DNA from: Dehalococcoidales bacterium
GTDB lineage: Bacteria; Chloroflexota; Dehalococcoidia; Dehalococcoidales; RBG-16-60-22
Direction: 5' to 3'
Length of the DNA: 64,000 nucleotides
NCBI GenBank assembly: GCA_034414775.1
Contig: DAOULX010000008.1
Span: forward strand, 659-64,658
Shown: piece after piece, positions 13,283 to 41,955 of the stretch
How positions within the stretch are numbered: the stretch's first letter is position 1
How the letters are laid out: each line of letters starts with the position of its first letter
Position numbers and translations under genes: made by a program
The notes under the pieces: model-generated
What the model saw: only the letters and a program-made list of their open reading frames with translations
Databases searched by the model: none
Told to the model about the DNA's origin: nothing

Positions 13283-13295
13283 ATTTTAAAATCTC

Positions 13296-22022: not shown

Positions 22023-22330
22023 CATTATATGCTCCCCGGTAACTGGGTAAAAGTAGAGTGATTTTTAAGTAATCGAAGAAAGCATTAGCTTCATGAAATG
22101 TTGCTCGTGAACATTAAATTTGTGTGATTCGTAGACATCGTTTCAAGAGGTCTTGGAGCTACCATCAAAAAAATGTGGAAATATTCAACGGCAGCGAGTA
22201 CCATATTAGGTAGCCCAAAAAACAGCCGAAGGAGGTACTTGCCGCCGCCATGGGATAGTACAAACTTTCAATACATGCTGATAGCAACAACTCCAGATCG
22301 CAAGAATATATATTGGATAAGGAGAAGTAG

Positions 22331-24937
22331 ATGGGTAAGACCGAAAACAGCCGAGAAAATACCGTTATCAGGTCTTTAGCCCTCGGAGGTGGTTTAGGTG
22401 GCGGCGGGCCATGTGCGGTGGACGTTAAAGACGGTAAAATAATCAGGATCAAACCCTTGCACTATGACTGGAAATATAAAAAAGAAGAACTAAATCCTTG
22501 GAAAATTACCAGGAATGGCCAAACCTTTGAACCTCTTATGAAAACGGTAGTGGCTCCTTTCTCACTGGCATACAAAAAGCGAGTCTATTCTCCCAATAGA
22601 ATTAAATATCCCTTAAAGAGGAAAGACTGGGACCCTAATGGGAAAAGAAATCCTCAGAACCGGGGCAAGACCAAGTATCAGAGAATCTCCTGGGACGAGG
22701 CTGCTCAAGTAATAGCGGATGAAATAAAAAGAGTTAAGGCAACATATGGTCCACTGGCAATCTTGTTGCAGGGGGATGGGCACGGGGAATGCAAGACCAT
22801 CCATGCATCTCACGGATGCCCTGCGATTCTCTTAGATAAAATGGGAGGCTTTACCCAGCAGATAAGAAACCCGGACAGTTGGGAAGGCTGGTATTGGGGC
22901 TCCAAGCATGTGTGGGGACAGGGCTGGGTGGGCATGATGAGGCCCTCGACTAATCTGGTCAAGGACATCACCGAGAACTGCGAATTGGTCCTCTGTTGGG
23001 GCTGTGATCCGGAAACCACCTCTTGGGGATTTACCGGCCAGTTTGCCAGCCGGCTAAGCTACTTCTGGAAGGATGTTGGCATAAATCAAGTCTATATTTG
23101 CCCTGACCTTAATTATGGAGCGGCGGTTCATGCGGATAAGTGGATCCCTATTCTTCCAAATACCGACGCCGCCTTACAGTTAGCTATTATATATCAATGG
23201 ATAAAGAAAGATACTTACGATAAGCAGTATGTGGACACTCATACCGTGGGATTTGACAAGGTTAAAGCTTATGTAATGGGGGAAGAAGATGGTATAGCCA
23301 AGTCCCCAGAGTGGGCCTCCAAGAAATGTGGCGTTCCTGAATGGACTATCAAAGCTCTGGCAAAGGAGTTTGCCTCAAGGATCACCTCCATTGTCCATTA
23401 TTTTGGCGGCTCCATGGTTAGAGGGGCTTACTCACACGAGCCAGCTAGGCTGGAAGCTATCTTACTGGGCATGCAGGGGCTGGGGAAACCCGGTGTCCAT
23501 CAGTTCCAGATAGGTTATGTAGGAATGCCCAGAAGTAAAGCCGCCATAGACTCATCATTTTTTAATGTTAATGTGAGTGAAAGTATTAAAAGGCCACAAG
23601 CAGTCACCCTAGAATTGAGTGAAAAGCAAGGTATTCCCAAAACCCTTATACATAAAGCTATTCTTAATCCCCCACTTAATTTTTGGGGCAGTGGTGCCAT
23701 AAATGCTACCTATGAGGACCAATTTAAGAAGTACACCTATCCCATCCCTAAAGATCAGGGTGGTACGGAGATCCATATGATCTGGACGGACTCTCCTTGC
23801 CGGACCACCTGCTGGAACTGCGGCAACGAGATCGTCGAATCTTATCGTAGTCCCAAGATAGAATGTATGATAGCCCAGCATCCCTGGTTGGAAAATGACT
23901 GCCTATATGCTGATATAATCCTGCCGGTCAGTACCACCTTGGAGGTGGAAGATATTGTAATTAATCTCAGGCAGGGAGTACAGTTCCAGAGCATCGTGCT
24001 GCAGAAACAAGCTATCCAACCAATAGGAGAATCGCGGAGCGATTTGGAAGCAGTTTATGAGATAGCCAAAAAACTGGGCAATTATGATGAGATCAACGAT
24101 AGTAAGAGCTCTGAAGAATTAGAGAAATCGGTCTTCGATTATATGGGAGCGCAGAAGTTCATTAACTGGGAAGAGTTCAAAGAAAAGGGCTACCTCCCCT
24201 TCCCGATTGCTGAAGATTGGGAAAAAGATCCAGCGGGTTTAATAAAATTCTATGAGGATCCGGTAATGAACCCTCTGACTACTCCCTCGGGTAAGCTGGA
24301 GTTCTATTCCGAAAGACTAGCTAAATATTTCCCCCATGATCAAGAGAGACCGCCGATTCCTAAGTGGATAGAAAAGAGTGAAATGCATGATGAAAGACTC
24401 TCCAGCAAACGGGCGCAAGTATATCCCCTGCTTCTGATGTCCAACCACGGAAGATGGAGAGTACATGCCCAATGCGACGACATACCGTGGACAAGAGAAA
24501 TTCCGACTTGCAAGGTAAAGGGATGGGATGGTTATCTATACGAGCCTGTTTGGATACATCCTAAAGATGCAGAAAAAAGAGGCATAAAAGATGGAGATAT
24601 TGTTAAAGTATTAAATGAGCGTGGTATTGTTCTTGGGGGAGCGCGTGTCTGGGAAAGAATAATGCCCGGTGTAACCTATGTCGACCATGGCGCGAGAGTA
24701 GACTACATCATTCCAGGAAAACTTGATCGGGGAGGGGCAATCAACACCATCGCTCCAGATGGAATTACTTCTAAATATTGTGGTGGGCAGGCCACCAGCG
24801 GTTACCTGGTGGAAGTCGAAAAGTTGACTCTCTCGCAACTTGAAGGTTGGAAGAATCAATACCCGGATGCTTTTGTCAGGGGATACGATTCATCATGCGG
24901 ATTACTTTTTGAATCCTGGGTAACTGAAGAAAGTTGA
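22331..24937 (+). CDS. molybdopterin (bis-MGD) enzyme without Fe-S cluster motif, pyrogallol-phloroglucinol transhydroxylase large-subunit-like
   Basis: 868 aa with no N-terminal Cys cluster and no twin-arginine motif. It has DMSO-reductase-family architecture. The strings VKDGKIIRIKP, YPLKRKDWDPNGKRNPQNRG and NPDSWEGWYWGSKHVWGQGW match my recollection of AthL. This needs checking. Confidence 0.75.
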   Translation: MGKTENSRENTVIRSLALGGGLGGGGPCAVDVKDGKIIRIKPLHYDWKYKKEELNPWKITRNGQTFEPLMKTVVAPFSLAYKKRVYSPNRIKYPLKRKDWDPNGKRNPQNRGKTKYQRISWDEAAQVIADEIKRVKATYGPLAILLQGDGHGECKTIHASHGCPAILLDKMGGFTQQIRNPDSWEGWYWGSKHVWGQGWVGMMRPSTNLVKDITENCELVLCWGCDPETTSWGFTGQFASRLSYFWKDVGINQVYICPDLNYGAAVHADKWIPILPNTDAALQLAIIYQWIKKDTYDKQYVDTHTVGFDKVKAYVMGEEDGIAKSPEWASKKCGVPEWTIKALAKEFASRITSIVHYFGGSMVRGAYSHEPARLEAILLGMQGLGKPGVHQFQIGYVGMPRSKAAIDSSFFNVNVSESIKRPQAVTLELSEKQGIPKTLIHKAILNPPLNFWGSGAINATYEDQFKKYTYPIPKDQGGTEIHMIWTDSPCRTTCWNCGNEIVESYRSPKIECMIAQHPWLENDCLYADIILPVSTTLEVEDIVINLRQGVQFQSIVLQKQAIQPIGESRSDLEAVYEIAKKLGNYDEINDSKSSEELEKSVFDYMGAQKFINWEEFKEKGYLPFPIAEDWEKDPAGLIKFYEDPVMNPLTTPSGKLEFYSERLAKYFPHDQERPPIPKWIEKSEMHDERLSSKRAQVYPLLLMSNHGRWRVHAQCDDIPWTREIPTCKVKGWDGYLYEPVWIHPKDAEKRGIKDGDIVKVLNERGIVLGGARVWERIMPGVTYVDHGARVDYIIPGKLDRGGAINTIAPDGITSKYCGGQATSGYLVEVEKLTLSQLEGWKNQYPDAFVRGYDSSCGLLFESWVTEES

Positions 24938-24996
24938 AAAGGTGCATATAAGGCCTCAGCCTTTGATGAAATAATGAATACGGGGGATTATAAAGA

Positions 24997-27411
24997 TTGA
25001 GCAGTATTAATTCAGCAGTAGACGGGGAGAGGATAATAAGAACTGCTTGTCATCTCTGTCACGGTGGTTGTATCTTACTGGCCCATGTTAAAGAGGGGAG
25101 ACTTATTAAATTAACAGGTGACCCCGAGGGGCCATTAAACAGAGGCGGTATGTGCGAAAAAGCATTTTCTGCCGTTGACTATGTATATAGCCCCTATCGC
25201 CTCAAACATCCTATGAAAAGGGTTGGAGAAAGGGGTGAAGGGAAATGGCAAAGAATCTCTTGGGATGAAGCTCTTGACACCATAGCTGGAAAATTGCAGG
25301 TCATAAAAGACAAATATGGAGGAGAGAGTATTGCATATGCTACTGGCACCGGTAGAGTAGCCGTCGAAACGCCGCAAGAGTTTTTTAGTGCTGTATTGGG
25401 TACACCGAATTGTATAGGTATTGGTCACATGTGCCTTAGTACCACCAGAAGACCCGTTGTTTATTCAACTCTAGGAACAGTACCCGGAAATATGGATAAA
25501 GGTATTTGCCGTGATTTTGAACGAGCTCAGTGTATCGTAGTTTGGGGAGATTCAATTATCGACTCGCGTGGTGATTATATGGGGCTCGCAGGGAAAAGGA
25601 TTTCTTCAGCACTCAATCGAGGAGCAAAGCTGATAGTCATAGACCCGGTATTAACAAAGGTGGCAGCGAAGTCCCATCTATGGCTGCAAGTCAGGCCTGG
25701 AACTGATATCGCTCTTGCATTGTCATGGATACATATAATTATAAATGAAAACCTATATGATATGGATTTTGTAATAAACTGGACCAATGCACCTTTTCTC
25801 GTCAGGTCTGATACGGGAAAGCTGCTAAGGGAAAAGGACATTTTACCCGATGCGTCACCTGATAATTTTGTTGTTTGGAATGCTGATGATAATACCTACC
25901 ATATATGGAACTCCGATATGCTCTCCTACGACTCGCACATTGCACAACCTGCTTTGACCGGAAGTTACTCAGTCAGCTTGGCAAACGATAGAATAATTGA
26001 ATGTAAGCCAGTCTGGCAAGTCATCAAAGATAATGTTAGAGAATGGACGCCGGAAAGGGCAGCCGAGATAACATGGATTCCCCCTGAAAAAATTGTAGAA
26101 TCTGCCATGATGTATGCCAAGATTAAGCCCGCATGTCTTGAATGGGGGCTTGGGACCTCTCAATGCACACGGTCAACAGCTACAAATCAGGCAATTTTAC
26201 ATCTTAAAGCAATTACTGGAAACCTTGATATTCCTGGAGGTAACCCTTTCTGGATTAATCCAGGAGTACTGGGAAGACCTGTCTTCTCCGCTTATCCCCC
26301 TGGGCAAGAAAAAAAGCGTATAAATGGCGGTTTCCCTTTTAATTGTTATGAAATATTGCCTGTCTTTGCTACCCATGCACCTACAGCGTGGAGGGCTGTT
26401 TTAACAGAGGAACCCTATCCAATCAAAGCGCTAGTCGGCCATAGCAGCAATCCATTATTAGGACATGAAAATCCAGGCAATTATATCCTCGAAGCATTGA
26501 AAAAGTTAGAGTTCATTGTATGGATAGATATTACGATGACGCCATCAAATGAGTGGGCAGACATTGTCTTACCCGCATCAACACCTTTGGAAAGGGACTG
26601 GATATCTGAATTTGACAGGGGCGTCTTTGCCGGCAAGGCCGTAATTCAACCACAGTGGGAAAGCAGATCTGACCTTGAAATTTATAGGGATTTATGTCAA
26701 AAGATGGGGCGTGAGGATGCATGGCCATGGAAGACTGATCGAGAGTGGTGTGACTATAGGTTAAAAGGTGCAGGAATAACTTTTGATGAGTTGACTGAAA
26801 CTTGTTTCAAACCTGCACTGGATGTTTGGAAAAAATATGAAAAGGGCTTGATACGTAAGGATGGTAGACCAGGATTTCAGACAAATTCAGGGAAAGTTGA
26901 ACTATATTCATCTCTTTTTGAGAAAGCAGGCATTCAACCTCTACCGCATTTTAGTTATCCGCCTGAAAGTTACGAAACCACGCCCGATTTAGCAAAAGAA
27001 TACCCATTAATATTAATTACTGGAGCTCGGGAATTAAATTATCCATTCTTTCAGACACAATACCAGATTTTACCCCGTTTGCGTAAAATGCAGCCTTATC
27101 CTTTGGTGCTTATTCACCCGGATACGGCACGTTCCTTGGAAATAAAAGACAATGATTGGGTATGGATAGAGACAAAAAAAGGCAAAGCCAAATTCAGAAC
27201 TCAAGTTACAGAAAGAATACATCCAAAGGTAGTTTCCGCCTCACATGACTGGTGGAATCCAGAATTTCCCGGTCCTGATCACGGGGCATTTGAGTCAAAT
27301 GTGAACCTCCTTGTTGACCCCGTCAGCTTTACTGACCCAGCTTCAGGTACAACAGAACTTAGAGGACTATTATGCAGGGTATATAAGTTCGAAGCAATCG
27401 CTGAAACTTAA
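24997..27411 (+). CDS. molybdopterin/tungstopterin (bis-MGD) enzyme with N-terminal [4Fe-4S] motif, acetylene-hydratase-like clade
   Basis: TTG start after GGGGGA. It has the Cys motif CHLCHGGC...C(EKA) and a candidate metal-ligand Cys in GIGHMCLST. The C-terminal GKVELYSSLFEKAGIQPLPHFSYPPES..LAKEYPLILITGARE resembles acetylene hydratase as I recall it. Confidence 0.75.
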   Translation: MSSINSAVDGERIIRTACHLCHGGCILLAHVKEGRLIKLTGDPEGPLNRGGMCEKAFSAVDYVYSPYRLKHPMKRVGERGEGKWQRISWDEALDTIAGKLQVIKDKYGGESIAYATGTGRVAVETPQEFFSAVLGTPNCIGIGHMCLSTTRRPVVYSTLGTVPGNMDKGICRDFERAQCIVVWGDSIIDSRGDYMGLAGKRISSALNRGAKLIVIDPVLTKVAAKSHLWLQVRPGTDIALALSWIHIIINENLYDMDFVINWTNAPFLVRSDTGKLLREKDILPDASPDNFVVWNADDNTYHIWNSDMLSYDSHIAQPALTGSYSVSLANDRIIECKPVWQVIKDNVREWTPERAAEITWIPPEKIVESAMMYAKIKPACLEWGLGTSQCTRSTATNQAILHLKAITGNLDIPGGNPFWINPGVLGRPVFSAYPPGQEKKRINGGFPFNCYEILPVFATHAPTAWRAVLTEEPYPIKALVGHSSNPLLGHENPGNYILEALKKLEFIVWIDITMTPSNEWADIVLPASTPLERDWISEFDRGVFAGKAVIQPQWESRSDLEIYRDLCQKMGREDAWPWKTDREWCDYRLKGAGITFDELTETCFKPALDVWKKYEKGLIRKDGRPGFQTNSGKVELYSSLFEKAGIQPLPHFSYPPESYETTPDLAKEYPLILITGARELNYPFFQTQYQILPRLRKMQPYPLVLIHPDTARSLEIKDNDWVWIETKKGKAKFRTQVTERIHPKVVSASHDWWNPEFPGPDHGAFESNVNLLVDPVSFTDPASGTTELRGLLCRVYKFEAIAET

Positions 27412-27698
27412 TGTAGAAACCAGATAAAATTCATAAGCGTTTTTTTTTACTGATCATGCTGATGAAACTGCATCAGAAACTACTTTTCCATTTATATCAT
27501 CCTAATTCTTTCTATCATATACTTTATTGGTGATTAGCACGCATCCTCGATACTCAGTAGCACTCGGTATAGCTGTGGACTGCTTGTGCCATTGGCCCCA
27601 AATACATCTAGACTTCCCTTCGCTCACTAGCTTCTCGCAATTGAACATACCTCAACTATATTCGACCAAATCAGAACGATACCCGAATGGCGGTTAAT

Positions 27699-27772
27699 TT
27701 GACATTATCTCTGCTATATGTTATATAGTAACTTAATAATGGGAATATAATTCCTCTTGTCGGAATATTAGG
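27699..27772 (+). promoter_or_regulatory. sigma70-like promoter plus palindromic candidate operator upstream of the UbiD gene
   Basis: TTGACA(27699-27704)-17 nt-TATATA(27722-27727) is followed by GGGAATATAATTCC..CGGAATATTAGG (27741-27772), which has GGAAT/ATTCC arms. Confidence 0.35.
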
Positions 27773-27810
27773 TATATTATACATATAAAAATAAGAGAGG
27801 AGGTAACTTT

Positions 27811-29271
27811 ATGCCTGGCAGAGACTTAAGGAGCTGGATAGTCCAATTGGAAGCTGAGGGTGAGTTTAAGAAAGTAACCGCACCAGTAGATTGGAACGAA
27901 GAAATATCCCAAATTATCCGGAAAGTATATGCCCAAAATGGTCCAGCTCTTCTATTTGATAATATCAGGGATTACCATAATACTCGGGGCCGAAGACTAT
28001 TTGTCAACGGTTTGGGAACAACAGGTCGTGTAAATATGATGCTCAATCTACCGAAGGATACTCCTATTCCAAAGCTGATAAAGACGATCAGAGATAGAAT
28101 GAAGTCACCAATAAAACCTGTGACGGTTAGCACCGGACCGGTCAAAGAAAATATTGTCAAAGGTGACGATATTGACCTTTTTCAATTCCCGGTGCCCAAA
28201 TGGCATGCGCATGATGCTGCGCGTTATATTAATACTTTCTATTCGGCAGTGACCAAGGATCCGGATACCGGCCAGTTAAATTGTGGTATCTATCGAGGTG
28301 GGATACTCAGTAAGAACAAGATAAGCAACCTATTGATACCCATGAAAGATTGGGGCGCTACTTATTCTAAGTACCAGCTTATAAAAAAACCAATGCCAGT
28401 AGCATTCGTCTATGGCTGGGATCCGGCTCTACTAGCAATTTCGGGAGTTCCATGTATCGGGCCCGAGTATGACCTGGCAGGAGCATTAAGGCAAGCTCCA
28501 GTGGAATTGGTTAAATGCGAATCCTCAGATATAGAGGTCCCTGCTTCAGCAGAAATAGTGGTTGAAGGCACTATTTCTCCGGATCCCCAAAGCTACGAAG
28601 TCGAAGGGCCATTCGGTGAGGCTTCCGGGTACTATGGTGTGGCTAGAACAAGACCGGTGGTAGAAGTTAGTTGCATCACGCACAGAAATGATCCCATTTT
28701 CCGAGGGGGTTATGTCGGTACTGAGAGTACTGTTACAGATGAACTCAAGACCATGGTGGGTAACACCATGTCAGCCGGTGTTTGGAGTATATTGGATACG
28801 CAAGAAATTCCGGGTATACTTGACGTCCAAACAGGGCACATAACAGCAATCAAGATTCACAAAACCTACCAAGGCCAGCCCAGGCAGATAAGCGCGGCTT
28901 TATGGGGATCCAAGTTTGCGGGTCAAGCTAACAGCAAGATAATCATGGTGGTTGAAGAAGATGTGGATATTCATAATCCCATGGATCTTCAGAAAGCCCT
29001 ACATGATAAACTAGATATTAAAGGAGGTCTAGTCTCATATCCCTTATACATCGGATCACCAGCGGACCCAAGTATTCCCTATGAGATGAGAAATGAGCTA
29101 AAATATGGGGCTGCCATGCAAGAAAAGCTGCTAATTGACGCTACGACCGATTGGGAAATTCACCCCATTCGCTCTGAGTGGGGTGGTAGCAGATTCCCCC
29201 CCAAGGCTATTGAAGCTTCAAGAGAAATAGAGGAATTGGTAGATAGAAGGTGGAAAGAATATAATATATAG
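27811..29271 (+). CDS. UbiD-family (prFMN-dependent) decarboxylase
   Basis: GAGGAGG precedes the ATG. The N-terminal RDLRSWIVQLEAEGEFKKVTAPVDWNEEISQI..GPALLFDNI is typical of UbiD. 486 aa. Confidence 0.85.
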   Translation: MPGRDLRSWIVQLEAEGEFKKVTAPVDWNEEISQIIRKVYAQNGPALLFDNIRDYHNTRGRRLFVNGLGTTGRVNMMLNLPKDTPIPKLIKTIRDRMKSPIKPVTVSTGPVKENIVKGDDIDLFQFPVPKWHAHDAARYINTFYSAVTKDPDTGQLNCGIYRGGILSKNKISNLLIPMKDWGATYSKYQLIKKPMPVAFVYGWDPALLAISGVPCIGPEYDLAGALRQAPVELVKCESSDIEVPASAEIVVEGTISPDPQSYEVEGPFGEASGYYGVARTRPVVEVSCITHRNDPIFRGGYVGTESTVTDELKTMVGNTMSAGVWSILDTQEIPGILDVQTGHITAIKIHKTYQGQPRQISAALWGSKFAGQANSKIIMVVEEDVDIHNPMDLQKALHDKLDIKGGLVSYPLYIGSPADPSIPYEMRNELKYGAAMQEKLLIDATTDWEIHPIRSEWGGSRFPPKAIEASREIEELVDRRWKEYNI

Positions 29272-29679
29272 ATTCATCTGTTCGTTAATATGAATCGAAT
29301 CATGGTATTACATCCCGATTAACTTTTTAATGGTTAAAATAAGTTTGATGGCTATTTTCAAAGGATCATTCAACTGACATTGAGACAGTTTTTATAATGT
29401 AGCTATAATATAAAAGTAAACTAAAAGGAAGTAACATCAAGAGGTGTGGATATAATCGGCGTTAGCGAGTGACCCTTTCTGTTAGTGAAGAAAATAATTG
29501 CGAAGGAAGTACTCACTACCGCCATGGAAAGCAAGCCACAAAAAGGATCTAGCCGTTAATTATTGTCCGGGAAAACCTGGAAGAATGAGGACGAAGGAAA
29601 GTACAGGAATTCATCCAGCCTCTTCTAGAGGAGGAAATCACCGATATTGCCTATATTTTATTAATGTTGGAGGTTTGAT

Positions 29680-30873
29680 ATGAGCGCATTAAATCAACTG
29701 ATAAAGATGTACATTCCGAATTCGGTCGTTGGATTAGGGGCTATTAACTCCATCAGTGAAACTATCAAAGGTTTTGCTCCGACAAAAATTCTTGTTCTTT
29801 CCGATGAAGGTTTGAGGAAAGCCGGGATTGTAGATAAGGTTATACCCTACCTTAAAAGTGCCGGCTATCCATTTGATATTTATGATAAATGTGAAACGGA
29901 GCCAACTATTAGCCACATTGAGACATTAGCACATAGTATTAAAACTAAACACTACGATCTCCTTATCGGTTTGGGAGGAGGCAGTGTCATGGATACTACC
30001 AAGGTCGCGAGTTTAATTGCTGCCAACAAGGGTGTAAACACTTATGACTTGATTAACGGCCAAAAGGTAGAAAATACCATTCGAAAGATACTTATTCCTA
30101 CTACTGCCGGTACTGGCTCGGAATGGAGCTATGCCGCCGTGGTTTCGGACGATAAAGCAGATAAAATGACAAAACTGATCTCAACCCAGCAAAACTTTGC
30201 TGATGCAGTGATCATAGACCCGGAACTAACCTTCGATTTACCTCCCAGGATTACAGCGGATACCGGGATCGATGCTCTTACACACTGTATGGAGGGCTAT
30301 TTCGGAGCTAGATCGAATGTACTTTCTGATATGATTAATGGAACAGCCTTGCAGCTTATTGCCGATAACTTACGTTCTGCCTACCTTCAGGGAACCCAAA
30401 ATCACGAAGCCCGATTTAATATGTCGGTTGCTGCCGCTCTTGCAATTCAGGGTGGAGGTCTTTCTGGTTCACCACTCGCACATATTTTAAATGAACCTCT
30501 TGGAAAAAGAGTGCACATATCCCACGGTACTGCCTGTGGCTTATTACTGGTGCCAGTCATGAAGTTTAATCTCCCAAGTAATCCGAAGAGGTTCGCCCAG
30601 ATTGCCCGAATAATGGGAGAAGATATCCATTTGCTCTCTGATCTTGAAGCAGCTGCCAGGTCAACGGAGGCAGTATACAAACTGATTAAAGACATTAAAA
30701 TGCCGACAAAACTTGCTGAGGCGACGGATATCGAGCTTACTGAGACAGATATCTCGATAATGGCGGAACAAGTCTCTAAAGCCTTTCCCATACTAAATTT
30801 AACAAATACCCGGCCAGTCACTCTCTCAGATGTAACACAAATCTATAGGCATGCTATTTGGGGAGAAAACTAG
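29680..30873 (+). CDS. iron-containing (group III) alcohol dehydrogenase
   Basis: It has the GLGGGSVMDTTK motif and the metal-site histidines IDALTHCMEGY and RVHISHGTACG. 397 aa. Confidence 0.85.
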   Translation: MSALNQLIKMYIPNSVVGLGAINSISETIKGFAPTKILVLSDEGLRKAGIVDKVIPYLKSAGYPFDIYDKCETEPTISHIETLAHSIKTKHYDLLIGLGGGSVMDTTKVASLIAANKGVNTYDLINGQKVENTIRKILIPTTAGTGSEWSYAAVVSDDKADKMTKLISTQQNFADAVIIDPELTFDLPPRITADTGIDALTHCMEGYFGARSNVLSDMINGTALQLIADNLRSAYLQGTQNHEARFNMSVAAALAIQGGGLSGSPLAHILNEPLGKRVHISHGTACGLLLVPVMKFNLPSNPKRFAQIARIMGEDIHLLSDLEAAARSTEAVYKLIKDIKMPTKLAEATDIELTETDISIMAEQVSKAFPILNLTNTRPVTLSDVTQIYRHAIWGEN

Positions 30874-31055
30874 TCCAGCTATTTTTCAAACCCAACATCA
30901 TAAAAAAGAGTTAAAGATATTTATGGTAGGAATAAATTCCATTCCTGATCCGGCTTCCTTGTAAAGATATGGATACAAAAACCGTATTTCAAGGGTAAAT
31001 CTGTCTCTTGTCCGGCCCTTCTTGGTCTCTATCACTTTTGAATAATTTACGGCCC

Positions 31056-31385
31056 TGTTGTGGTCTAATAAAACGGACACCTTAAGAAGAGTCAGGTAAA
31101 ATAGAAGAAAGCAGGAGGTGTTCGATTGACCGAGCAAAAGAGGGGACGTTACACCGCGGAGTTCAAGAATTCTTCCACTTGCGTATCCGGCTGGGATGAA
31201 CCCGAAACCGGTTGGCCAGTTCGGCTATCGTTTCTTCACCCTTTGATGCTTCCAGGGCTACCCTGGCCTTGAATGATGGGCTGTGTTTCCTTCGGTTCTT
31301 TGTCATGTCCTGCTCCTTTCTCTCTTCCTATTTTTAGGGCAGGACCCGCTCTTAGCTACGTGTCCAAATTCCGGGGACCACCTCA
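31056..31385. mobile_element. two IS3-family left-end stubs joined head-to-head (IR plus truncated orfA on each strand)
   Basis: On the + strand, IR TGTTGTGGTCTAATAAAACGGACAC (31056) and AGGAGG precede TTG-TEQKRGRYTAEFKN (31126-31170). On the - strand, IR TGAGGTGGTCCCCGGAATTTGGACAC (outer end 31385) and AAGGAG precede MTKNRRKHSPSFKARVALEASKGEETIAELANRFGVHPSRIRKWKN (31306-31169). The two stubs meet at the GAATTC at 31167-31172. Confidence 0.65.
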
Positions 31386-31513
31386 CGCCATGATGACACA
31401 GCCAAGCGGAACCGGTTATTGAAGCCCGTGAACGCAAAATGCTACTATGAGGGCAAGACCATGTTTCGATTATATTCTCAACAGTTAATCTGTCGATTCT
31501 CAGGGATTCCGTC

Positions 31514-33445
31514 ATGAACGATTTCGGCTATGCCGGTGAGATACTCCGGGTAGACCTGACGACTGGATCCGTCAGCAAGCTAATCACGTCCGATTACGCC
31601 GAACGGTTCCTGGGTGGCCGGGGCATCGCCGCTAAAATTCACTGGGATGAAACTCCCCTCCCCGTCCAGGCCTACAATCCCGGCAACTGCCTGGTCTTCG
31701 CCACCGGGCCGTTAACGGGATTCACCCGGTTGTCAGGCTGCCGTTGGGAGGTCTGCGCCACGGCGCCGGGTGGCGACCGGGACCGCTTTTCTTACGCCAA
31801 TTTCGGGGGGAGCTGGGGGGCCTGGCTCAAATTCAGCGGCTACGACGCGCTGGCCGTTACCGGTCGTGCTGAGCGCCCCGTCTATCTCCTCATCGAAAAC
31901 GGAGACGTTGAAATCAGGGACGCCGCCTTCCTCCGTAGCAAGACCACCTCCGAGACCCAGGAAATGCTGAAGGCAGAACTGGGGAAAGGGGCCAAGGTGC
32001 TCTGCATCGGACCGGCCGCCGAGAACCTGTTGCCCTTCGCCACCATCCTCGCCGAAGATAACGCCTCCGGTACAGGCGGCCTCGGCGGCGTCATGGGATC
32101 GAAGAATCTCAAAGCAATCGTTATCCGGACCGGTGAACTGAAAAGACCGGTGGCTGCCGAACCGGAGCTTCTCAAGACGCTTACAGAACAGGTCTACCGG
32201 CTACAGACGGAGAACTGGGAAGACCACGGCCACGAATTGGTCGCCATGGCCGGAAGGACGCATCGCACCGCCTGCTACGGATGCATCAAGGGCTGCACCC
32301 GCGGGATGTACCGGACTGAGGACGGGCGTCAGTTCAAGTTTTACTGCCAAGCCACTGCCGTCTACCGCGGTCCGGCGGCGAAATACAACGGGAATGCCGG
32401 GGATATCGATAAACTGGCAACGCGACTCTGTGATGAATACGGGCTGGATACCGCCGTACTCCAGCCGATGATCGAATGGCTGGATCGCTGCTATGAAGCG
32501 GGCCTGCTCAATGAACAACTGACCGGTCTGCCAATGGAGCGGATCGGCAGTCCGGAGTTTATCAGGGAGCTGACAAGGAAGCTTGCCTTCCGCGAGGGCT
32601 ACGGTGATGTCCTGGCCGCGGGTACATTCGAGGCCGCCGCTCGTGTCGGCCGGGACGCTGTTGAGCTCATCGGGACGACTATCGCCACACGGGCCGGGGA
32701 GTGCCGCGACCATGATCCCAGACTGTTACCACCCAATATCCTCATCTATGCCACGGAACCACGCCGGTCGGTCTATCTGCTCCACTCGACGGCCTTTCCG
32801 TTGACAAGGTGGCTGAACTGGCAGGCTGGCGCCGATAATGCGTTCCTTACCACCGATATCCTCCGGACCATCGCTGAGAGGGAATGGGGCAGCCGGGACG
32901 CTTTCGATTTTACCACCCGCGGCGGGATGGCTTTGGCCACGAAAAAGATCCAGGACTACGGGTATATAAAATCGAGCCTGGTGCTCTGCGACATGGCCTG
33001 GCCGATCTATCAGGTCCACTCGCTGGATAGCAGCATCGGGGCGTATACCCTGGAAAGCCGCCTTGTCTCGGCTATCACCGGGCGGCCGATGACCGAAGCG
33101 GAATTGGAAAAAACCGGCGAAAGGGTATTTAACCTGCAACGGGCGATACTAAACCGGCAGGGGTGGGGAGGTAGGTCGGGGGATAGCCTCGTCGAGCCGC
33201 TTTTCACCGAGCCCCTTGACGGGACGTTCTATGACCCCGAGAGCATTGTCCCCGGCGGTGATGACGACCCGGCTCCAAGAAAGGGCGCCGTCATCGGAAG
33301 AGAGGATTTTGAGAAGCTGAAGGACGAGTACTATACGTTGCGTGGTTGGGACGTGGCTACCGGACTTCAGAAAGATTCCAAACTGATTGAGCTGGGGCTC
33401 GGAGACATCGCCCGGGTGTTGGAGGAAAGCGGCCTCTTAAAGTAG
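31514..33445 (+). CDS. aldehyde:ferredoxin oxidoreductase family (tungstopterin) enzyme
   Basis: It has the N-terminal AFOR motif GEILRVDLTTGSV..FLGGRGIAAKI and the cluster motif TACYGCIKGC. 643 aa. Confidence 0.85.
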   Translation: MNDFGYAGEILRVDLTTGSVSKLITSDYAERFLGGRGIAAKIHWDETPLPVQAYNPGNCLVFATGPLTGFTRLSGCRWEVCATAPGGDRDRFSYANFGGSWGAWLKFSGYDALAVTGRAERPVYLLIENGDVEIRDAAFLRSKTTSETQEMLKAELGKGAKVLCIGPAAENLLPFATILAEDNASGTGGLGGVMGSKNLKAIVIRTGELKRPVAAEPELLKTLTEQVYRLQTENWEDHGHELVAMAGRTHRTACYGCIKGCTRGMYRTEDGRQFKFYCQATAVYRGPAAKYNGNAGDIDKLATRLCDEYGLDTAVLQPMIEWLDRCYEAGLLNEQLTGLPMERIGSPEFIRELTRKLAFREGYGDVLAAGTFEAAARVGRDAVELIGTTIATRAGECRDHDPRLLPPNILIYATEPRRSVYLLHSTAFPLTRWLNWQAGADNAFLTTDILRTIAEREWGSRDAFDFTTRGGMALATKKIQDYGYIKSSLVLCDMAWPIYQVHSLDSSIGAYTLESRLVSAITGRPMTEAELEKTGERVFNLQRAILNRQGWGGRSGDSLVEPLFTEPLDGTFYDPESIVPGGDDDPAPRKGAVIGREDFEKLKDEYYTLRGWDVATGLQKDSKLIELGLGDIARVLEESGLLK

Positions 33446-33776
33446 TCTGCTTCGTTCACTCCTCGGAATCGCCATTCGGTTCCTTTTCATCGATCAAGTG
33501 CAAAACGTTTTTCCTGACTTCCCGCAGGGTGTTGTCCAGTTCTATAATATCCGAGGTGTAGAGATAGGCAAGGAATATCCTGACACCCTGGAATTCCGTG
33601 ACTGTGCCCGAAGTTCCTTCGCCGTGGTCTTAATAGCGTCCCTGTCCGGCTGAGCCATGTACTTAAGATTTTAAACGGATACTAATAGATTATCGATGTT
33701 AAAGTCATATACGAAATAATTCATTTTATTAATTAGTGTCAGAGTTGAAAAAGATTAGTTAATTCGGGTGTGGGCC

Positions 33777-34928
33777 TTAGCCCCGGAGGAAGTCCCGGAG
33801 AAAAACAAGGCTGTGAGTTACCGCCCGCTGGACTACCTGCTGTGGGCCTCCCGGGTAGCCTGTCTCGATTACCTGGTTTTTTACTTCCCGGTCCGCCGCG
33901 ATGATTACCATTCCCCCCTCCCCGCCACCATCAATGGCGATGCCCACGTCGGCGGAGAACTGGCGCCGCACTGATCGCGCCATTTCCAGAACCTTCTCGT
34001 GGCTGCTGACGCCCTCGGCGGGGAGGATAAAACCGCCACGGAAATAACGACGGACGTCCGGATTACCCACTAGGGTCTGCGCCAGTAAACCCGTGGTAAA
34101 AGTCTCGGAGGCGGCCAGGGAGAGTTGCTTTTCAGTGAGGATACTCCCCACCACACCTTCTAAAGTATCTTCATCCGCCCCCCAAATATGATCTCCCATC
34201 ACCTCCCTAATCTCAGCCTCGCGTCCGGCAACTCTTGCCTCAGCATCTGCCCGGTCGTTGCCCTTAGTAGTGATACGCAGGTGGATGCCGTCATACTTGG
34301 CATAGACCCCCAGCGTGGGATCGGCCTGGGATAAGTACGGGGTGAGTAGTTCGTCAACTTTTCCCTCGGTCATGCCCCAGGTCTTCAGGGTCCGGGAGAT
34401 AATGATAGCGCCACTTTTCGCCTCTAGCCGGGGCTGCACTTCATTATGCCACATATCCTGCAGTTCTATTGGAGGGCCGGGTAAAGCCGCAATTATCCGG
34501 CCATCTTTCTCCACCCACCAGCCCGGCGCCGTGCCGCATTTGTTCGGCAGGGCCTTTGCGGACGGGACAAGCATGGCCTGTTTGATATTATTTTCCGGCA
34601 TTTCAATACCGCGACGTGTAAAGAAGCCGGTTAGCTCCTCCTTTATTTCCGGGACAATGGTCATCGTTTCGCCCAACAGCCCGGCAATCACCTCCCGGGT
34701 GATGTCCCCCAGAGTCGGGCCCAGGCCGCCGGTAGTGAAAATCAGGTCCGACCTTTCCCAGGCCTGCCGGAGCAGGCCGGAGTACCTGGCGAAATTGTCC
34801 CCCACCGCCGAGGTATAATACAGGTCTATTCCCAGCGCCGCGAGCCGCCCAGCGATAAAGGGCGTGTTGGAATCGGTGATTTCCCCGAGCAATAGCTCGG
34901 TGCCGCTGGTAATGATTTCGGCTTTCAT
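33777..34928 (-). CDS. cinA: CinA family protein (MoCF-biosynthesis-like N-domain plus PncC-like nicotinamide-nucleotide amidase domain)
   Basis: It begins MKAEIITSGTELLLGEITDSNTPFIAGRLAALGI. I prefer the ATG at 34928, which is preceded by GGAGGAG. The ORF-track start at 35054 adds 42 unsupported residues. Confidence 0.8.
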   Translation of the reverse strand: MKAEIITSGTELLLGEITDSNTPFIAGRLAALGIDLYYTSAVGDNFARYSGLLRQAWERSDLIFTTGGLGPTLGDITREVIAGLLGETMTIVPEIKEELTGFFTRRGIEMPENNIKQAMLVPSAKALPNKCGTAPGWWVEKDGRIIAALPGPPIELQDMWHNEVQPRLEAKSGAIIISRTLKTWGMTEGKVDELLTPYLSQADPTLGVYAKYDGIHLRITTKGNDRADAEARVAGREAEIREVMGDHIWGADEDTLEGVVGSILTEKQLSLAASETFTTGLLAQTLVGNPDVRRYFRGGFILPAEGVSSHEKVLEMARSVRRQFSADVGIAIDGGGEGGMVIIAADREVKNQVIETGYPGGPQQVVQRAVTHSLVFLRDFLRG

Positions 34929-35178
34929 GTCGTCATAGCTCCTCCAGCCCCCATTATCAGTGATAATGGGGCGGGTGCTCAAGTCCGGGCTGGATTTACC
35001 TGCCCTTATCCCCCAATCCGTCCCCATATAATCCCTGTTGATGGTTCGGGACATAAGTTACAGACACTCATCATGAAATACTCCTAGAATCGAATTGAAA
35101 AAGCGGCTTTCGCCCGACCTGCCTGAGGTTTAAGTCATCCCTAGTGGCATGCTAATATAGCTTAGAGGAGGAAGGCAC

Positions 35179-35625
35179 ATGAAAAATGTTCTTTTGGTTT
35201 ACTTCAGCCTGAGCGGCAATACCCAGACCATGGCGCAGTATGTAGCCGAAGGCGTCCGTTTTAGCGGGCAGGATGTAACGGTCAAAAAGGCGGCGGAAAT
35301 CAAGGAAGCCTCGGAGCTGGCCGGCTACGACGGCTACATCTTTGCTTCACCCACCTACTACCTGGATATCGGCGCCCCGATGAAGACCTTTCTTTTCCTG
35401 GCGCGGCAGGCCGACCTCGCCGGTAAGCTGGCCGGGGCGTTTGGCTCCTACACCCATGACGGCAACGCCCCGCGGATGATATTCGATACCATGCAGAATG
35501 TTTTTAAGATGGAGCCTTTCGAACTGGGGGCCTTCAACCTAGTTGAGGCTAAGGTAGCCACCAACGAAGGTATGCGCGCCTGCCAGGCCTACGGCCGGAC
35601 CTTCGGCGAGGCGCTGGAAAGGTAA
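35179..35625 (+). CDS. flavodoxin (short-chain)
   Basis: 148 aa with the FMN phosphate loop LLVYFSLSGNTQTMA. GAGGAGG precedes the ATG. Confidence 0.85.
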   Translation: MKNVLLVYFSLSGNTQTMAQYVAEGVRFSGQDVTVKKAAEIKEASELAGYDGYIFASPTYYLDIGAPMKTFLFLARQADLAGKLAGAFGSYTHDGNAPRMIFDTMQNVFKMEPFELGAFNLVEAKVATNEGMRACQAYGRTFGEALER

Positions 35626-35659
35626 ACATCTTTCCCCGTCCGGTTAAGGCAGGCACGCC

Positions 35660-36472
35660 ATGCATATTGTCTGTTGCATCAAGCAGGTGCCGGATACCGC
35701 CCAGGTAAAGATCGATCCGGATACCAATACCCTGGTGCGCTCCGGCATGGAATCCATCTGCAATCCGTATGACCTCGTCGCCGTGGAGGCCGCCGTCCAG
35801 CTTATCGAAAGACACGGCGGAAAGGTCACCGTGATAACGATGGGGCCTCCCCAGGCGGAAACGGCCCTGCGGGAGTGCCTGGCGCTGGGCGCCGCCGATG
35901 CCGTGCTGCTTTCGGACAGGGCCTTTGCCGGCGCCGATACTCTGGCCACCAGCTACACTCTGGCCCAGGCAATCACCATGATTGCCCAGGAGGAACCGGT
36001 TGACCTCGTCCTCTGTGGCAAGCAGGCCATCGACGGGGACACCGCGCAGACCGGGCCGGGCGTCGCCACGCGGCTGGGCTTTGACCAGCTAACCTACGTT
36101 TCCAAAATAGTCGATATCGATCCTGAGAACCGGACCATACGCGTGCAAAGAGAGGTAGAGGGTGGCCAGGAGATAGTTGAGGGGAGACTCCCCGCCCTGC
36201 TGACCGCCGAACTGGAACTGGCCACGCCTCGCTACGCCTCTCTGCCAGACCTAATACAGGCTTTAAGATACTCCGTCAAGACCTGGGGCGCCGCCGAGAT
36301 TTCCGGCCAGCCGGAAAAGCTGGGACTCAAGGGCTCGCCGACCTCGGTCAAGGAGATATTTACCCCACCGCTGCGCCAGGGTGGTCCGGTGTTCGATGGT
36401 GCTGATGAATTACTTGACGCCATCTTTAAGAACGAGAAAGCGCTGCTTGAAGAATTGCTGAAAAAGGGATAG
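35660..36472 (+). CDS. fixA: electron transfer flavoprotein beta subunit (FixA/EtfB)
   Basis: It begins MHIVCCIKQVPDTAQVKIDPDTNTLVR and contains NPYDLVAVEAAV. 270 aa. Confidence 0.9.
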   Translation: MHIVCCIKQVPDTAQVKIDPDTNTLVRSGMESICNPYDLVAVEAAVQLIERHGGKVTVITMGPPQAETALRECLALGAADAVLLSDRAFAGADTLATSYTLAQAITMIAQEEPVDLVLCGKQAIDGDTAQTGPGVATRLGFDQLTYVSKIVDIDPENRTIRVQREVEGGQEIVEGRLPALLTAELELATPRYASLPDLIQALRYSVKTWGAAEISGQPEKLGLKGSPTSVKEIFTPPLRQGGPVFDGADELLDAIFKNEKALLEELLKKG

Positions 36473-36474
36473 CC

Positions 36475-37725
36475 ATGCCGAAGAACTTTAAAGGCCGGGA
36501 CATCGCTGAGATCGTCCCGGAAAAGTGTATCGCCTGCCAGATGTGCATCGGGGAGTGCCCCGTCAGCGCTATTAAAATGAAGGGCGATGCGGCGCAAATC
36601 GATCCGGAGGCCTGCATCGCCTGCGGCAAGTGCTTTGATATCTGTCCGGTGGGCGCCGTCATCTTTGAAAAACCACGCAAGAAAAGACCGGCCGCCCCCG
36701 GACAGCCCCGCCCCGCCGGTGACCACGCCGGCGTCGCCGTCTTCATCGAAGTATGGGAGGGACAGGGTGCTGAGGTATCCTGGGAGCTGGTCGGCAAGGC
36801 GCGGGAGATCGCCGATAAGCTCGGGACGCCGGTGCTGGGATTTCTGCCCGGTTCCGATGTAACGCCAATCGCCGATGAGGCCATTGCCTATGGCTGCGAT
36901 ACGGTCTACGTCGTCAACGACTCCCTGTTGAAACAATATCTTTCCATGACTTACGGCCAGGCGTTGGCTCAGCTCTGCCGCGAGGCCAAGCCGGAGATGC
37001 TGCTGCTCGGTGCGACCGGCCTGGGCCGCGACCTTTCCGGCGTGGTGGCTACCCGGCTGGAGACCGGGTTGACGGCGGACTGCACCGACCTGGATGTAGA
37101 CATTGAGAACCGCTGGCTTCTTATGACCCGGCCCACCTTCGGCGGCAACATCATGGCCACCATCCTCTGCCGCCAGCATTACCCCCAGATGAGCACTGTC
37201 CGGCCGAGGGTCTTCCAGATACCCGAAAAAGACTCCGCTCGAAAGGGAGAAATCCGCCAGGTTAAGCTGGAGCCAATCGAAGGAGACCTGCCGAAAATCA
37301 TCGATTTTATCCCCGCGGCAGCCACCGGCGTCGATATCACCCAGGTCCCGGTACTGGTCGTGGTGGGCAAAGGCGCCTGCGATTCTAAGAACCTGCCCAT
37401 GCTCGAGGAGATGGCGGGGCTACTCGGCGGCACCGTAGCCTGCTCCCGCCCGGTAGTGGAGGCGGGGCTGATGCCCTACGAGCGCCAGGTAGGCCAGACG
37501 GGCCGGACCGTTGCTCCCAAGCTTTACATCGGTGTCGGGGTCTCCGGCTCGGTGCAGCACCAGGCCGGCATGCAGGGCGCCGCCAAGATAATCGCCATCA
37601 ACACCGACCGCCACGCCCCACTGGTGCAAATCGCTGATTACTCCATCATCGGGGACTACGCAGAGATAGTGCCGGAGATTATAAAGGGGCTGAAGACTAA
37701 GACCAGGCAGGCAAGCGCACCATGA
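36475..37725 (+). CDS. fixB: electron transfer flavoprotein alpha subunit (FixB/EtfA) with N-terminal 2x[4Fe-4S] ferredoxin domain
   Basis: It has CIACQMCIGECP and CIACGKCFDICP at the N-terminus, and the C-terminal LYIGVGVSGSVQHQAGMQGAAKIIAINTD FAD-binding signature. Confidence 0.9.
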   Translation: MPKNFKGRDIAEIVPEKCIACQMCIGECPVSAIKMKGDAAQIDPEACIACGKCFDICPVGAVIFEKPRKKRPAAPGQPRPAGDHAGVAVFIEVWEGQGAEVSWELVGKAREIADKLGTPVLGFLPGSDVTPIADEAIAYGCDTVYVVNDSLLKQYLSMTYGQALAQLCREAKPEMLLLGATGLGRDLSGVVATRLETGLTADCTDLDVDIENRWLLMTRPTFGGNIMATILCRQHYPQMSTVRPRVFQIPEKDSARKGEIRQVKLEPIEGDLPKIIDFIPAAATGVDITQVPVLVVVGKGACDSKNLPMLEEMAGLLGGTVACSRPVVEAGLMPYERQVGQTGRTVAPKLYIGVGVSGSVQHQAGMQGAAKIIAINTDRHAPLVQIADYSIIGDYAEIVPEIIKGLKTKTRQASAP

Positions 37726-39026
37726 AAGAGTCTTTCGACGTCGCCATCGTCGGGGCGGGGCCGGCCGGTATCTCGGCCGCCTGCACTCTGGCCGATGCCG
37801 GCGTCAAGACCATCGTCTTCGAGCGGGGGGAGTTCCCCGGGGCTAAAAACGTCTCCGGCGGTGTTCTCTATGGCCATGACCTGTCTCAAATAATACCGGA
37901 CTACATCGAACGCGACTGCCCTATCGAGCGGAATATTGTGGAGATGAGACTCTGGTACCTCTCCGTGCAGAGCGGTTATAGTTTGGGCTACCGGGATACC
38001 GCCTTCATGAACGAGCGCAAGAACAATGCTTTTACTATTACGCGCGCCCGGTTCGACCGCTGGTTCGCGGAGCAGGCGGTGAAAAAGGGCGCCCTGGTGG
38101 TGCCCGCCACCAACGTGATCGACCTGTTGAGAGATGGCGACAACAGCGTGGCGGGGGTGGTTACCGGCCGCGAGGACGGCGAGGTCCGGGCCAAAGTCAC
38201 CATCCTGGCCGACGGCGTCAACTCGCCGCTGGCCGCCAGGGCGGGGTTCCGCCCGGAGCCCCGGCCGGAAGATGTCGCCCTGGCCGTCAAGGAGATTATC
38301 GAGCTTCCCCCGGAGGTCATCGAGCAGCGCTTCGGGGTCGATAAAGAAAATGGCGTGACCACCGAGGTCCTCGGCGAGATAACGGCGGGCATGGACGGCG
38401 TGGCGGCCATCTACACCAACCGCGCTTCTGTTTCCCTGTCCATCGGGGCCAACCTGGCCGATTTTGTATCCTTACAGGTCAGGCCTTATGAAATGATCGA
38501 GTCCTTCAAGCAGCACCCGATGGTGGCCCCGCTTATAGAAGGGGGACACCCCCAGGAATACCTGGCCCACTGGCTGGCCGAAGGCGGCTACGATACCATC
38601 CCCCGGCTCTTTGGAAACGGCTATCTTATCGCCGGGGACTCTGCCATGCTCTTCAACGCCCTGCACCGCGAGGGCAACAACTTGGCTATGGCTTCGGGGA
38701 AAATGGCGGCGGAGGCGGCTATCGAGGCCCTGGAGCGTGGAGACGCATCGAAGCGGGGTCTCTCGGGATACGGCGAAAGGTTGGCCAAATCTTATGTAAT
38801 CAAAGACTTGAGGAAATACCGCCGCTTCGGGCGGTTCCTCTATCACCACAAAGAGCTTTTTAACGAGCTCCCGGCGCTGGCCTCAATGGTGGCCCGCAAG
38901 ATGCTTACCGTCGATGGCGTTCCCAAGAAACGAAAGCAGCGGTTGATCTGGCGGGAGATACGGCGTAAGATGGGAATCTGGAGGCTTCTCCGGCTGTTCT
39001 GGCAGGCGTGGAGGGCGGTAAAATGA
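37722..39026 (+). CDS. fixC: FixC-type FAD-dependent oxidoreductase (ETF:quinone oxidoreductase-like)
   Basis: It contains FDVAIVGAGPAGISAA. The ATGA overlap with fixB indicates coupling. 434 aa. Confidence 0.85.
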   Translation: MKESFDVAIVGAGPAGISAACTLADAGVKTIVFERGEFPGAKNVSGGVLYGHDLSQIIPDYIERDCPIERNIVEMRLWYLSVQSGYSLGYRDTAFMNERKNNAFTITRARFDRWFAEQAVKKGALVVPATNVIDLLRDGDNSVAGVVTGREDGEVRAKVTILADGVNSPLAARAGFRPEPRPEDVALAVKEIIELPPEVIEQRFGVDKENGVTTEVLGEITAGMDGVAAIYTNRASVSLSIGANLADFVSLQVRPYEMIESFKQHPMVAPLIEGGHPQEYLAHWLAEGGYDTIPRLFGNGYLIAGDSAMLFNALHREGNNLAMASGKMAAEAAIEALERGDASKRGLSGYGERLAKSYVIKDLRKYRRFGRFLYHHKELFNELPALASMVARKMLTVDGVPKKRKQRLIWREIRRKMGIWRLLRLFWQAWRAVK

Positions 39027-39304
39027 GTATGAAAATTGAGGACAAGCTTTTCCTCGACCGTTTCAGGGTGGATACCGAAAGCCACCTTAAGATTATCGAC
39101 GGGGACAGGTGTCTCAAAGACTGCCGGGAGCAGCCGTGCCTCTATTTCTGCCCGGCCAATGTCTACCGGCTGGAGGGCGACCGTATCAGCGTCAACTACG
39201 AGGGCTGCCTGGAATGCGGCTCCTGCCGTATCGGCTGCCCCCATATGAACATCGATTGGCGCTTCCCGCGGGGCGGCTACGGCGTCAGCCATAAGTTCGG
39301 CTAA
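39023..39304 (+). CDS. fixX: FixX ferredoxin-like protein
   Basis: It contains CREQPCLYFCPANVY..CLECGSCRIGCP. I prefer the ATG at 39023, which overlaps the fixC stop (ATGA) and follows GGAGGG. The ORF-track start is 39008. Confidence 0.85.
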   Translation: MSMKIEDKLFLDRFRVDTESHLKIIDGDRCLKDCREQPCLYFCPANVYRLEGDRISVNYEGCLECGSCRIGCPHMNIDWRFPRGGYGVSHKFG

Positions 39305-39327
39305 CGAAATACAAGGGGGAAGGTCCC

Positions 39328-39567
39328 ATGGCCCGGGAAGTAAGGCAGATACGGATCGACCGGATACATCCCAACCGCCGCCTCGTTTTTCAAGAGGAGG
39401 TAATTCAAAGCCTTTGCAGCGATATCGAGGCGAACGGACTCCGGGAGCCGATTACCGTCGAGCTGACCGAATTCCGATTCGAGATCATCGACGGCGAAAA
39501 ACGCTGGCGGGCCTGTAAGAAGATAGGCTGGGAAAGGATCAACGCCGTGATTGTCGAGGAATGGTAG
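39328..39567 (+). CDS. ParB N-terminal (ParB/Srx-fold) domain-only protein, possibly a truncated gene
   Basis: 79 aa containing IRIDRIHPN and IIDGEKRWRACKKIGWERINAVIV (compare the GERRxRA box). It ends where full-length ParB proteins continue into their HTH, and hairpin repeats start about 30 nt later. Confidence 0.55.
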   Translation: MAREVRQIRIDRIHPNRRLVFQEEVIQSLCSDIEANGLREPITVELTEFRFEIIDGEKRWRACKKIGWERINAVIVEEW

Positions 39568-39627
39568 AGAAATGCCATGATTAGATGTCAAGGGCATAAA
39601 AAAGGGGAGGAGATTACCGCCCCCCTT

Positions 39628-39666
39628 CTGGATTCCCGCTTTCGCGGGAATGACGTCGGGAATGAC
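39628..39666. repeat. GC-rich hairpin repeat (GTCATTCCCGCGAAAGCGGGAATCCAG type) plus partial duplicate
   Basis: ctggattcccgctttcgcgggaatgac is followed by gtcgggaatgac. The same module occurs at 45909-45936 (ctggattccagctttcgctggaatgaca). Confidence 0.8.
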
Positions 39667-39677
39667 GTTGGGTTTTT

Positions 39678-41565: not shown

Positions 41566-41758
41566 ATTTTTGCCGCCCTTTCGTTTCAATATCGACTGTA
41601 TCCAGGGTGAGCTTGCTGCCGCAGCGCGGGCAGGCGTTGCCGTAGAACCCCAGCACCGTCTCCTCGGAGGGTATCGCCCGCATGTAGAGCCGGCGTTTTA
41701 TCTCCTCCCCGAAGTAGAGTAGCATGCGGCACTTCTTACAGTTGATCTTTTCGGTCAT
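41555..41758 (-). CDS. small zinc-ribbon protein (CxxC...CxxC)
   Basis: 67 aa with CKKC and CPRC pairs. Its stop overlaps the transketolase start (ATGGCGCATGA), which suggests translational coupling. Confidence 0.5.
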   Translation of the reverse strand: MTEKINCKKCRMLLYFGEEIKRRLYMRAIPSEETVLGFYGNACPRCGSKLTLDTVDIETKGRQKYGA

Positions 41759-41831
41759 CGTTACCTCGCTTTCTGTTATGGTTATTAGCTTTTAGCCATT
41801 AGCTGTTACTTTTCACCACCCCACCTTATAC

Positions 41832-41948: not shown

Positions 41949-41955
41949 TGGGCGT

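Follow-up and report, generated by a model that had tools for sequence, protein, structure and literature searches.

A decayed double stub of two IS3-family insertion sequences at a mosaic boundary

Insertion sequences of the IS3 family carry two reading frames, orfA and orfB, and a programmed -1 frameshift. A 330-bp unit at positions 31056-31385 of the DNA analysed here (the window, 64,000 nt in total) resembles them in its TG...CA ends, in the HTH of orfA (PF01527) and in a ribosome-binding site a few bases upstream of the start codon. The full-length relatives of its two arms, found on metagenomic contigs L005 and L009, encode an orfB with an rve domain, and the complete copy on L005 has in addition an A7G site and a length of 1252 nt. 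The unit differs in that only 114 + 219 nt survive, without orfB, right end or target duplication, and neither part is functional. IS-derived MITEs offer a second comparison, since the unit is likewise short, effectively non-coding and has inverted IS ends on both sides; it differs in deriving from two IS lineages, in being present as one copy, in having no target-site duplication and in breaking within two coding regions, and MITEs arise by internal deletion of one IS, unlike the fusion seen here. The unit is also like IS-bounded island edges and IS deletion scars, in that IS remnants lie at a compositional and phylogenetic discontinuity and the relatives of the two flanks continue differently, but the border lacks an integrase, tRNA or direct repeat, and the break falls inside the elements rather than reflecting adjacent deletion by a transposase. 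Finally, Tobes and Pareja (2006; PMC1525189) deal with IS3-family insertion into REP sequences, by IS1397 and similar elements. Compared with that account, the right-hand IS of our unit likewise abuts an apparent half REP-like repeat that is intact in three relatives, but here there is a single insertion and the match covers only 10-13 nt.

Direct reading of positions 30700-31800 showed that the unit consists of two different IS3-family left ends, placed face to face and joined inside orfA, each arm comprising an inverted repeat, a ribosome-binding site and the first codons of orfA (15 on the left, 46-47 on the right). The coordinates, codon counts and GAATTC site that an earlier, sequence-only reading of this DNA had given for both stubs were all correct. 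The unit is bounded by TG at 31056-31057 and CA at 31384-31385, and thus has ends of the IS3 type. The left-hand (L-type) stub, on the forward strand at 31056-31169 (114 nt), comprises an inverted repeat (31056-31091), the ribosome-binding site AGGAGG (31113-31118), a TTG start at 31126 and 15 orfA codons. It begins with TGTTGTGGTC...GGACAC (the longer read from 31056 being TGTTGTGGTCTAATAAAACGGACAC, then AGGAGG), and its coding part reads MTEQKRGRYTAEFKN. The right-hand (R-type) stub, on the reverse strand at 31385-31167 (219 nt), comprises an inverted repeat (31385-31349), a ribosome-binding site, an ATG start at 31306 and 46-47 native orfA codons. It begins with TGAGGTGGTC...GGACAC (the longer minus-strand read from 31385 being TGAGGTGGTCCCCGGAATTTGGACAC), and its coding part reads MTKNRRKHSPSFKARVALEASKGEETIAELANRFRVHPSRIRKWKNS, ending ...HPSRIRKWKNS, whilst the stop codon of this ORF (31165-31163) is contributed by the left arm. 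The terminal repeats of the two stubs were identical at 21/37 aligned positions, with conserved blocks in common and an outward-facing core of TG..GTGGTC...GGACAC.T....AAGAG in both; the shorter core TG..GTGGTC...GGACAC was common to both stub ends and to contigs L001-L009. A degenerate inverted-repeat pattern matched exactly the two stub ends in the window, and none of 100 shuffles produced any match. A search of the window ORFs found no orfB or rve ORF within 31056-31385, so the arms are remnants and not elements. No second copy of either IS or of the unit was found elsewhere in the window, the small ORFs across the unit had no match in the protein collection, and scanning its surroundings for promoters and terminators revealed nothing of note.

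The two arms have different relatives. The L-type stub matched the left end of a complete IS3 element on the JGI metagenome contig L005 with 82% identity over 114 nt (E 6e-27), the similarity stopping past TTCAAGAA. The L005 element has a matching right end (IRR), an orfA of 99 aa (HTH_Tnp_1, PF01527, E 2.3e-17), an orfB of 283 aa (rve, E 2.8e-27) and its A7G slippery (frameshift) motif at 512. The L-type stub is itself below Pfam-usable length, and its HTH assignment is made through its 82% nucleotide identity to the L005 orfA; the L-type OrfB is ~52% identical to annotated IS3-family transposases in plasmid entries. The end-pattern search behind these comparisons returned no matches in GTDB representatives and six contigs in JGI metagenomes, of which only L005 is a close L-type relative. 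Contigs L002-L004 and L006, all from one metagenome (Ga0209536), are contig-end fragments of another related IS. All four break off 62 nt into one and the same IS3-type left end, as typically happens when a multicopy IS disrupts assembly, and this IS represents a third relative with a terminal repeat intermediate between the L and R types.

For the R-type stub, Pfam HTH_Tnp_1 (PF01527) was recognised above the gathering score (E 2.3e-7). Its protein showed 80-89% identity to many IS3 OrfA proteins and fell into a 90%-identity cluster that includes full-length OrfA proteins of 94 aa from numerous metagenomes; the name of one cluster member gives a Chloroflexota MAG as its source. DNA relatives (L007-L009) could be aligned to the stub, and L009 also carries orfB (rve, E 3.4e-11); the R-type OrfA was 55-56% identical to plasmid entries annotated as 'IS3 family' or 'IS3-like element ISRj2 family' transposase. 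Three replacements in the stub (L21S, E35R and Q40R) fall at positions with little or no variation among ~19 relatives, which suggests pseudogene drift. The unit is functionless: it is unable to transpose, and the most it can produce is an HTH fragment of 47 aa in which decay mutations are already present. For annotation, the small transposase ORF at 31163-31306 is accordingly to be treated as a pseudogene fragment.

Each arm adjoins what appears to be its own former target. On the left, the last intact gene of the low-GC side is an Fe-dependent alcohol dehydrogenase (Fe-ADH; 29680-30873, forward strand; Pfam Fe-ADH 4.6e-40, ADH_Fe_C 1.7e-36; GC3 0.40). Its nearest relatives (75% aa identity) lie on Logan contigs L015-L019 (43.5% G+C), where an intact gene for an aldehyde:ferredoxin oxidoreductase (AOR) follows 74 nt downstream. 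At the corresponding position in the window, 30923-31006 on the forward strand, lies a decayed stretch of ~28 codons with an in-frame stop that adjoins the L-type end. It reads MVGINSIPDPASL*RYGYKNRISRVNLS and is identical to the first 28 residues of the L016 AOR at 13/28 positions (tblastn E 9e-5, in a small search). Judged by similarity and position together, this stretch is evidently the 5' remnant of an AOR gene that once lay downstream of the Fe-ADH and was cut by the L-type IS.

On the right, the first gene of the high-GC side is an intact AOR (31514-33445, forward strand; Pfam AFOR_N 1.6e-61, AFOR_C 2.6e-51; GC3 0.72). It is only ~30% identical to the L016 AOR found behind the ADH, and is thus a different paralogue, and shows 76-82% aa identity to the AORs of contigs L013, L014 and L020 (62-64% G+C), in which the gene order AOR-MarR-CinA-ImuB-DnaE2 is syntenic. 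The regions upstream of AOR in these three contigs align to the window starting at the IS end. They include a promoter-like block at 31419-31448 (forward strand; TTGAAG, 18-nt spacer, TACTAT), within which TTGAAGCC and AAAATGCTACTAT do not vary between the window and contigs L013, L014 and L020, and which may act as the AOR promoter. Immediately next to the IS end, a probable half of a REP-like repeat lies at 31386-31398 on the reverse strand (reverse complement TGTCATCATGGCG, resembling TGTCATCATGAGCG at 41855), and an intact repeat, CTGGATTCYGGCTTKCGCSGGAATGACA, is present at the homologous site upstream of AOR in L013, L014 and L020. A gapless REP pattern search found the copy at 41855 only, the half-repeat at 31386 differing by a 1-nt indel. 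That the R-type IS cut a REP-like repeat upstream of AOR is a suggestive reading of this 10-13 nt match. The REP-like family (TGTCATTCTGAGGGAGCG...CGACCGAAGAATC and variants) occurs in both orientations and only in the high-GC right half, with copies at 41854-41888, 41904-41949, 45947-45991, 48616-48650 and 55286-55323. Neither set of relatives shows the juxtaposition of ADH and AOR seen in the window: L015-L019 have the ADH followed by the paralogous AOR, and L013 has ABC exporters upstream of AOR. Since the flanking remnants lie in unrelated contexts, the two elements inserted independently and were fused later.

The right-hand region also differs from these relatives downstream of AOR. Of the MarR gene situated between AOR and CinA in L013, L014 and L020, only a 149-nt remnant (75% identity) is left at 33547-33694. 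In these relatives imuB-dnaE2 follows directly after CinA, whilst in the window (35179-44326 and 45030-50165) ~10 kb lies between the two, with genes for a flavodoxin, an etfBA/fixCX-like cluster, a split transketolase and dehydrogenases; the imuB-dnaE2 cassette itself is inverted and has 63-68% G+C.

The unit coincides with an abrupt change in composition. G+C content was 46.5% for 1-31055 versus 58.0% for 31386-64000, the left half being uneven (48.5% for 1-16 kb and 44.4% for 16001-31055), and the shift occurred within ~200 nt of the unit. The maximum-likelihood change point for the whole window fell at 31524 (2-log-unit support interval 31486-31608), and a local scan of 26-36 kb placed it at 31110 (support 31100-31531). 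Near the unit, GC3 went from 0.36-0.41 in the three genes to its left to 0.67-0.73 in the three genes to its right. Tetranucleotide correlation gave two blocks split at 32 kb, and Karlin delta* was 81-103 for the 16-31 kb blocks versus right-half blocks, compared with 26-63 among right-half blocks. G+C change point, GC3, tetranucleotides and Karlin distances therefore agree on the sharp step that the sequence-only reading had placed at the unit. Its figure of 65-73% G+C for the right side was ~10 points too high: the mean is 58%, 1-kb windows range over 48-68%, and values of 66-68% are confined to 31.6-31.9 kb (200-nt windows) and 47-50 kb (1-kb windows). The left half also contains two paralogous modules, each with a SnoaL_4 protein and a peptide-type ABC transporter (permeases and a family-5 binding protein), the paired stretches being 277-816 and 16662-17180, 313-343 and 16543-16573, 872-906 and 16573-16607, and 1782-5682 and 12386-16083, with short conserved non-coding stretches close to the SnoaL genes. 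The binding-protein gene at 14452-16083 (reverse strand) has in its 5' part a tandem 18-nt repeat of ~6-7 units (15894-16012), which probably encodes a repetitive linker after the signal peptide.

The unit marks the border of two DNA segments with different ancestry. At least one of the two was probably acquired horizontally, although which side is foreign we can only infer. The proposal that this is the edge of an acquired island agrees with the composition step and with relatives that lack the juxtaposition, but the border itself has none of the usual hallmarks looked for, namely an integrase, a tRNA or a direct repeat. There was no integrase among the 45 ORFs scanned in the window, and a tRNA and Rfam search of the window found no tRNA or ncRNA near the join, its sole match being a tRNA-Pro (GGG) at 62582-62658 in the high-GC half, the only RNA gene in the window.

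The join was found in two further assemblies, which were reached via a partial ADH (P0078) and the 47-aa stub ORF. The Logan contig SRR14802573_230036 (1302 nt) corresponds to window positions 29974-31275 with 1 mismatch and spans the join; it ends inside the R-type stub, so that the right boundary at 31385 is supported by two NCBI assemblies only. Contig CAYMSP010000014.1 of GCA_964393175.1 (36,129 nt) corresponds to 29770-41306 with 3 mismatches and no gaps, running from 1.3 kb inside the left flank through the two stubs and across the right flank. Four SNPs distinguish the three assemblies (30182, 30197, 30235 and 30726), all in the Fe-ADH gene of the left flank, and 10 kb of the right half was identical throughout; the three assemblies thus represent three left-flank haplotypes with one identical scar. 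Both other contigs end within the first 300 nt of the Fe-ADH gene (29770-29974). The SNPs and contig ends suggest strain-level variation, or a paralogue (e.g. L012, from the same run) that disturbs assembly of the left block. Independence of the three assemblies is judged by assembler and haplotype, and the samples may be the same or related. Outside this locus the unit was not encountered, the junction 30-mer giving 0 matches in GTDB representative genomes and JGI metagenome contigs. Exact-protein look-ups of the flanking Fe-ADH, the AOR and P0196 gave no match. A literature search for the run and assembly accessions returned nothing.

The two arms meet at a 10-nt palindrome, AAGAATTCTT (31165-31174), that contains GAATTC at 31167-31172. 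The L arm reaches 31169 and the R arm reaches 31167 or further, so that GAA at 31167-31169, and possibly the whole of AAGAA at 31165-31169, is assignable to both parents (an overlap of 3-5 nt). The length of this overlap is approximate, as the nearest L-type relative is only 82% identical and the L-type IS could itself carry GAATTC. The R-type relatives L007 and L008 read TGGAAGAATTCC at this site, and most R-type proteins read KWKNSLAEGAA, whilst L005 continues past its TTCAAGAA with GGAC; by this comparison, GAATTC is seen to be native to the R-type IS at this codon. Because GAATTC is palindromic, the overlap of the arms acts as a direct microhomology on one strand. Direct microhomology at a breakpoint is the usual mark of an illegitimate, slippage- or end-joining-type deletion, and the overlap points to an illegitimate, microhomology-type join as the putative mechanism. 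The break is internal to both elements, which excludes a transposase working at IS ends as its cause. Nesting of one IS within the other was likewise rejected, because the join runs from the interior of one element to the interior of the other, with no IS end involved.

We propose the following sequence of events. An L-type IS would have inserted into the 5' end of an AOR gene just downstream of the Fe-ADH, in low-GC DNA, and an R-type IS would have inserted ~128 nt upstream of another AOR, in high-GC DNA and apparently in a REP-like repeat. A single illegitimate join would then have fused L-type orfA codon 15 to R-type orfA codon 46-47, with the loss of the two transposase genes, the two right ends and any intervening DNA. 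The most likely route would be a deletion between two facing elements on one replicon. No genome with both intact elements was found, and the pre-deletion state is hypothetical. A recombination scar between two IS copies was one of the origins suggested by the sequence-only reading, and it is this suggestion that the data favour, in the form of two different IS3 elements on their own targets with a 3-5 nt overlap.

Joining of two molecules, with foreign low-GC DNA ending in the L-type IS being end-joined into a resident R-type IS during transfer, is the alternative that best survives, though we consider it unlikely. It accords with the gap of ~20 G+C points between the relatives of the two flanks (43.5% versus 62-64%) and with the REP-like family being confined to the right half, and the SNPs in the left flank together with the contig breaks at 29770-29974 hint that the left block is variable or accessory. 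Yet no second end could be identified for the fragment that would have come in, G+C also varies within the left half, and the present data do not separate such an integration joint from deletion. A different question is whether the join was a selected, IS-mediated replacement of one paralogue by another in place rather than a random scar. It is a striking coincidence, and one not foreseen by random deletion, that the place of a truncated AOR has been taken by a second AOR with unchanged position and orientation; even so, this may be chance, and selection is a doubtful explanation to which we give little credence. Were it true, the Fe-ADH would have lost its cognate AOR to the L-type IS, a ~30% identical high-GC AOR with its own conserved promoter would have been placed 640 nt downstream, and an ADH-AOR pair (acid to aldehyde to alcohol) would have been rebuilt from two lineages.

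The sequence-only reading had also raised a chimeric assembly, and an artefact that links two organisms, arising in the library or as a chimeric read or contig, would suit metagenomic data in which G+C and tetranucleotides both change sharply at a repeat-type sequence, as well as the Logan contig that stops in the R stub at 31275. Against this, the identical gapless join is present in three assemblies made with different pipelines and carrying three slightly different left-flank haplotypes; the arms share only the 10-nt palindrome, which we judge too short for assembler joining, and a one-off chimeric molecule would not be expected to reach assembly depth. An artefact is thus very improbable, and we take the join, on the agreement of these assemblies, to be real and no assembler chimera. 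Given that other assemblies reproduce it, composition alone is no reason to split the contig here.

Ligation of two EcoRI-type ends, either in cloning or in vivo after restriction breaks, is less credible still. The join does lie exactly at GAATTC, and the sequence-only reading was literally right to describe the arms as fused at such a site, but the site is native to the right-hand IS there, which deprives it of meaning and leaves no evidence of restriction and ligation. Moreover, the sole L-type relative reads AAGAAGGAC here and not GAATTC, shotgun assemblies without restriction cloning are assumed, two random EcoRI ends both falling in the first 50 codons of an IS3 orfA would be very unlikely, and the window shows no significant depletion of GAATTC (14 sites versus 21.9 +/- 5.4 expected). 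Scarcely tenable at all is a MITE-like, non-autonomous element moved whole by an IS3 transposase acting in trans: the geometry noted at first sight is there (small size, no transposase and outward terminal inverted repeats with a common core), but the flanks differ (GCCC|TG...CA|CGCC, hence CCC and CGC with no target-site duplication), the repeats, which match at 21/37 positions only, belong to separate IS lineages, the window contains no further copy and the collections searched lack the junction 30-mer, and the arms still sit on their own original targets, the left one on the AOR remnant and the right one, with less certainty, on the half REP.

We therefore regard the 330-bp unit as probably a dead relic of two different IS3-family insertion sequences that were fused after independent insertions. 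It is a decayed IS3 double stub at a mosaic boundary, real, well explained and ordinary. Little depends on the unit itself, but it provides a clean case of IS3 elements leaving fused stubs at an ancestry border in an uncultured anaerobe, one that the names of homologues suggest to be probably Chloroflexota/Dehalococcoidia-like, and it indicates that the flanking ADH and AOR genes differ in history despite their operon-like appearance.
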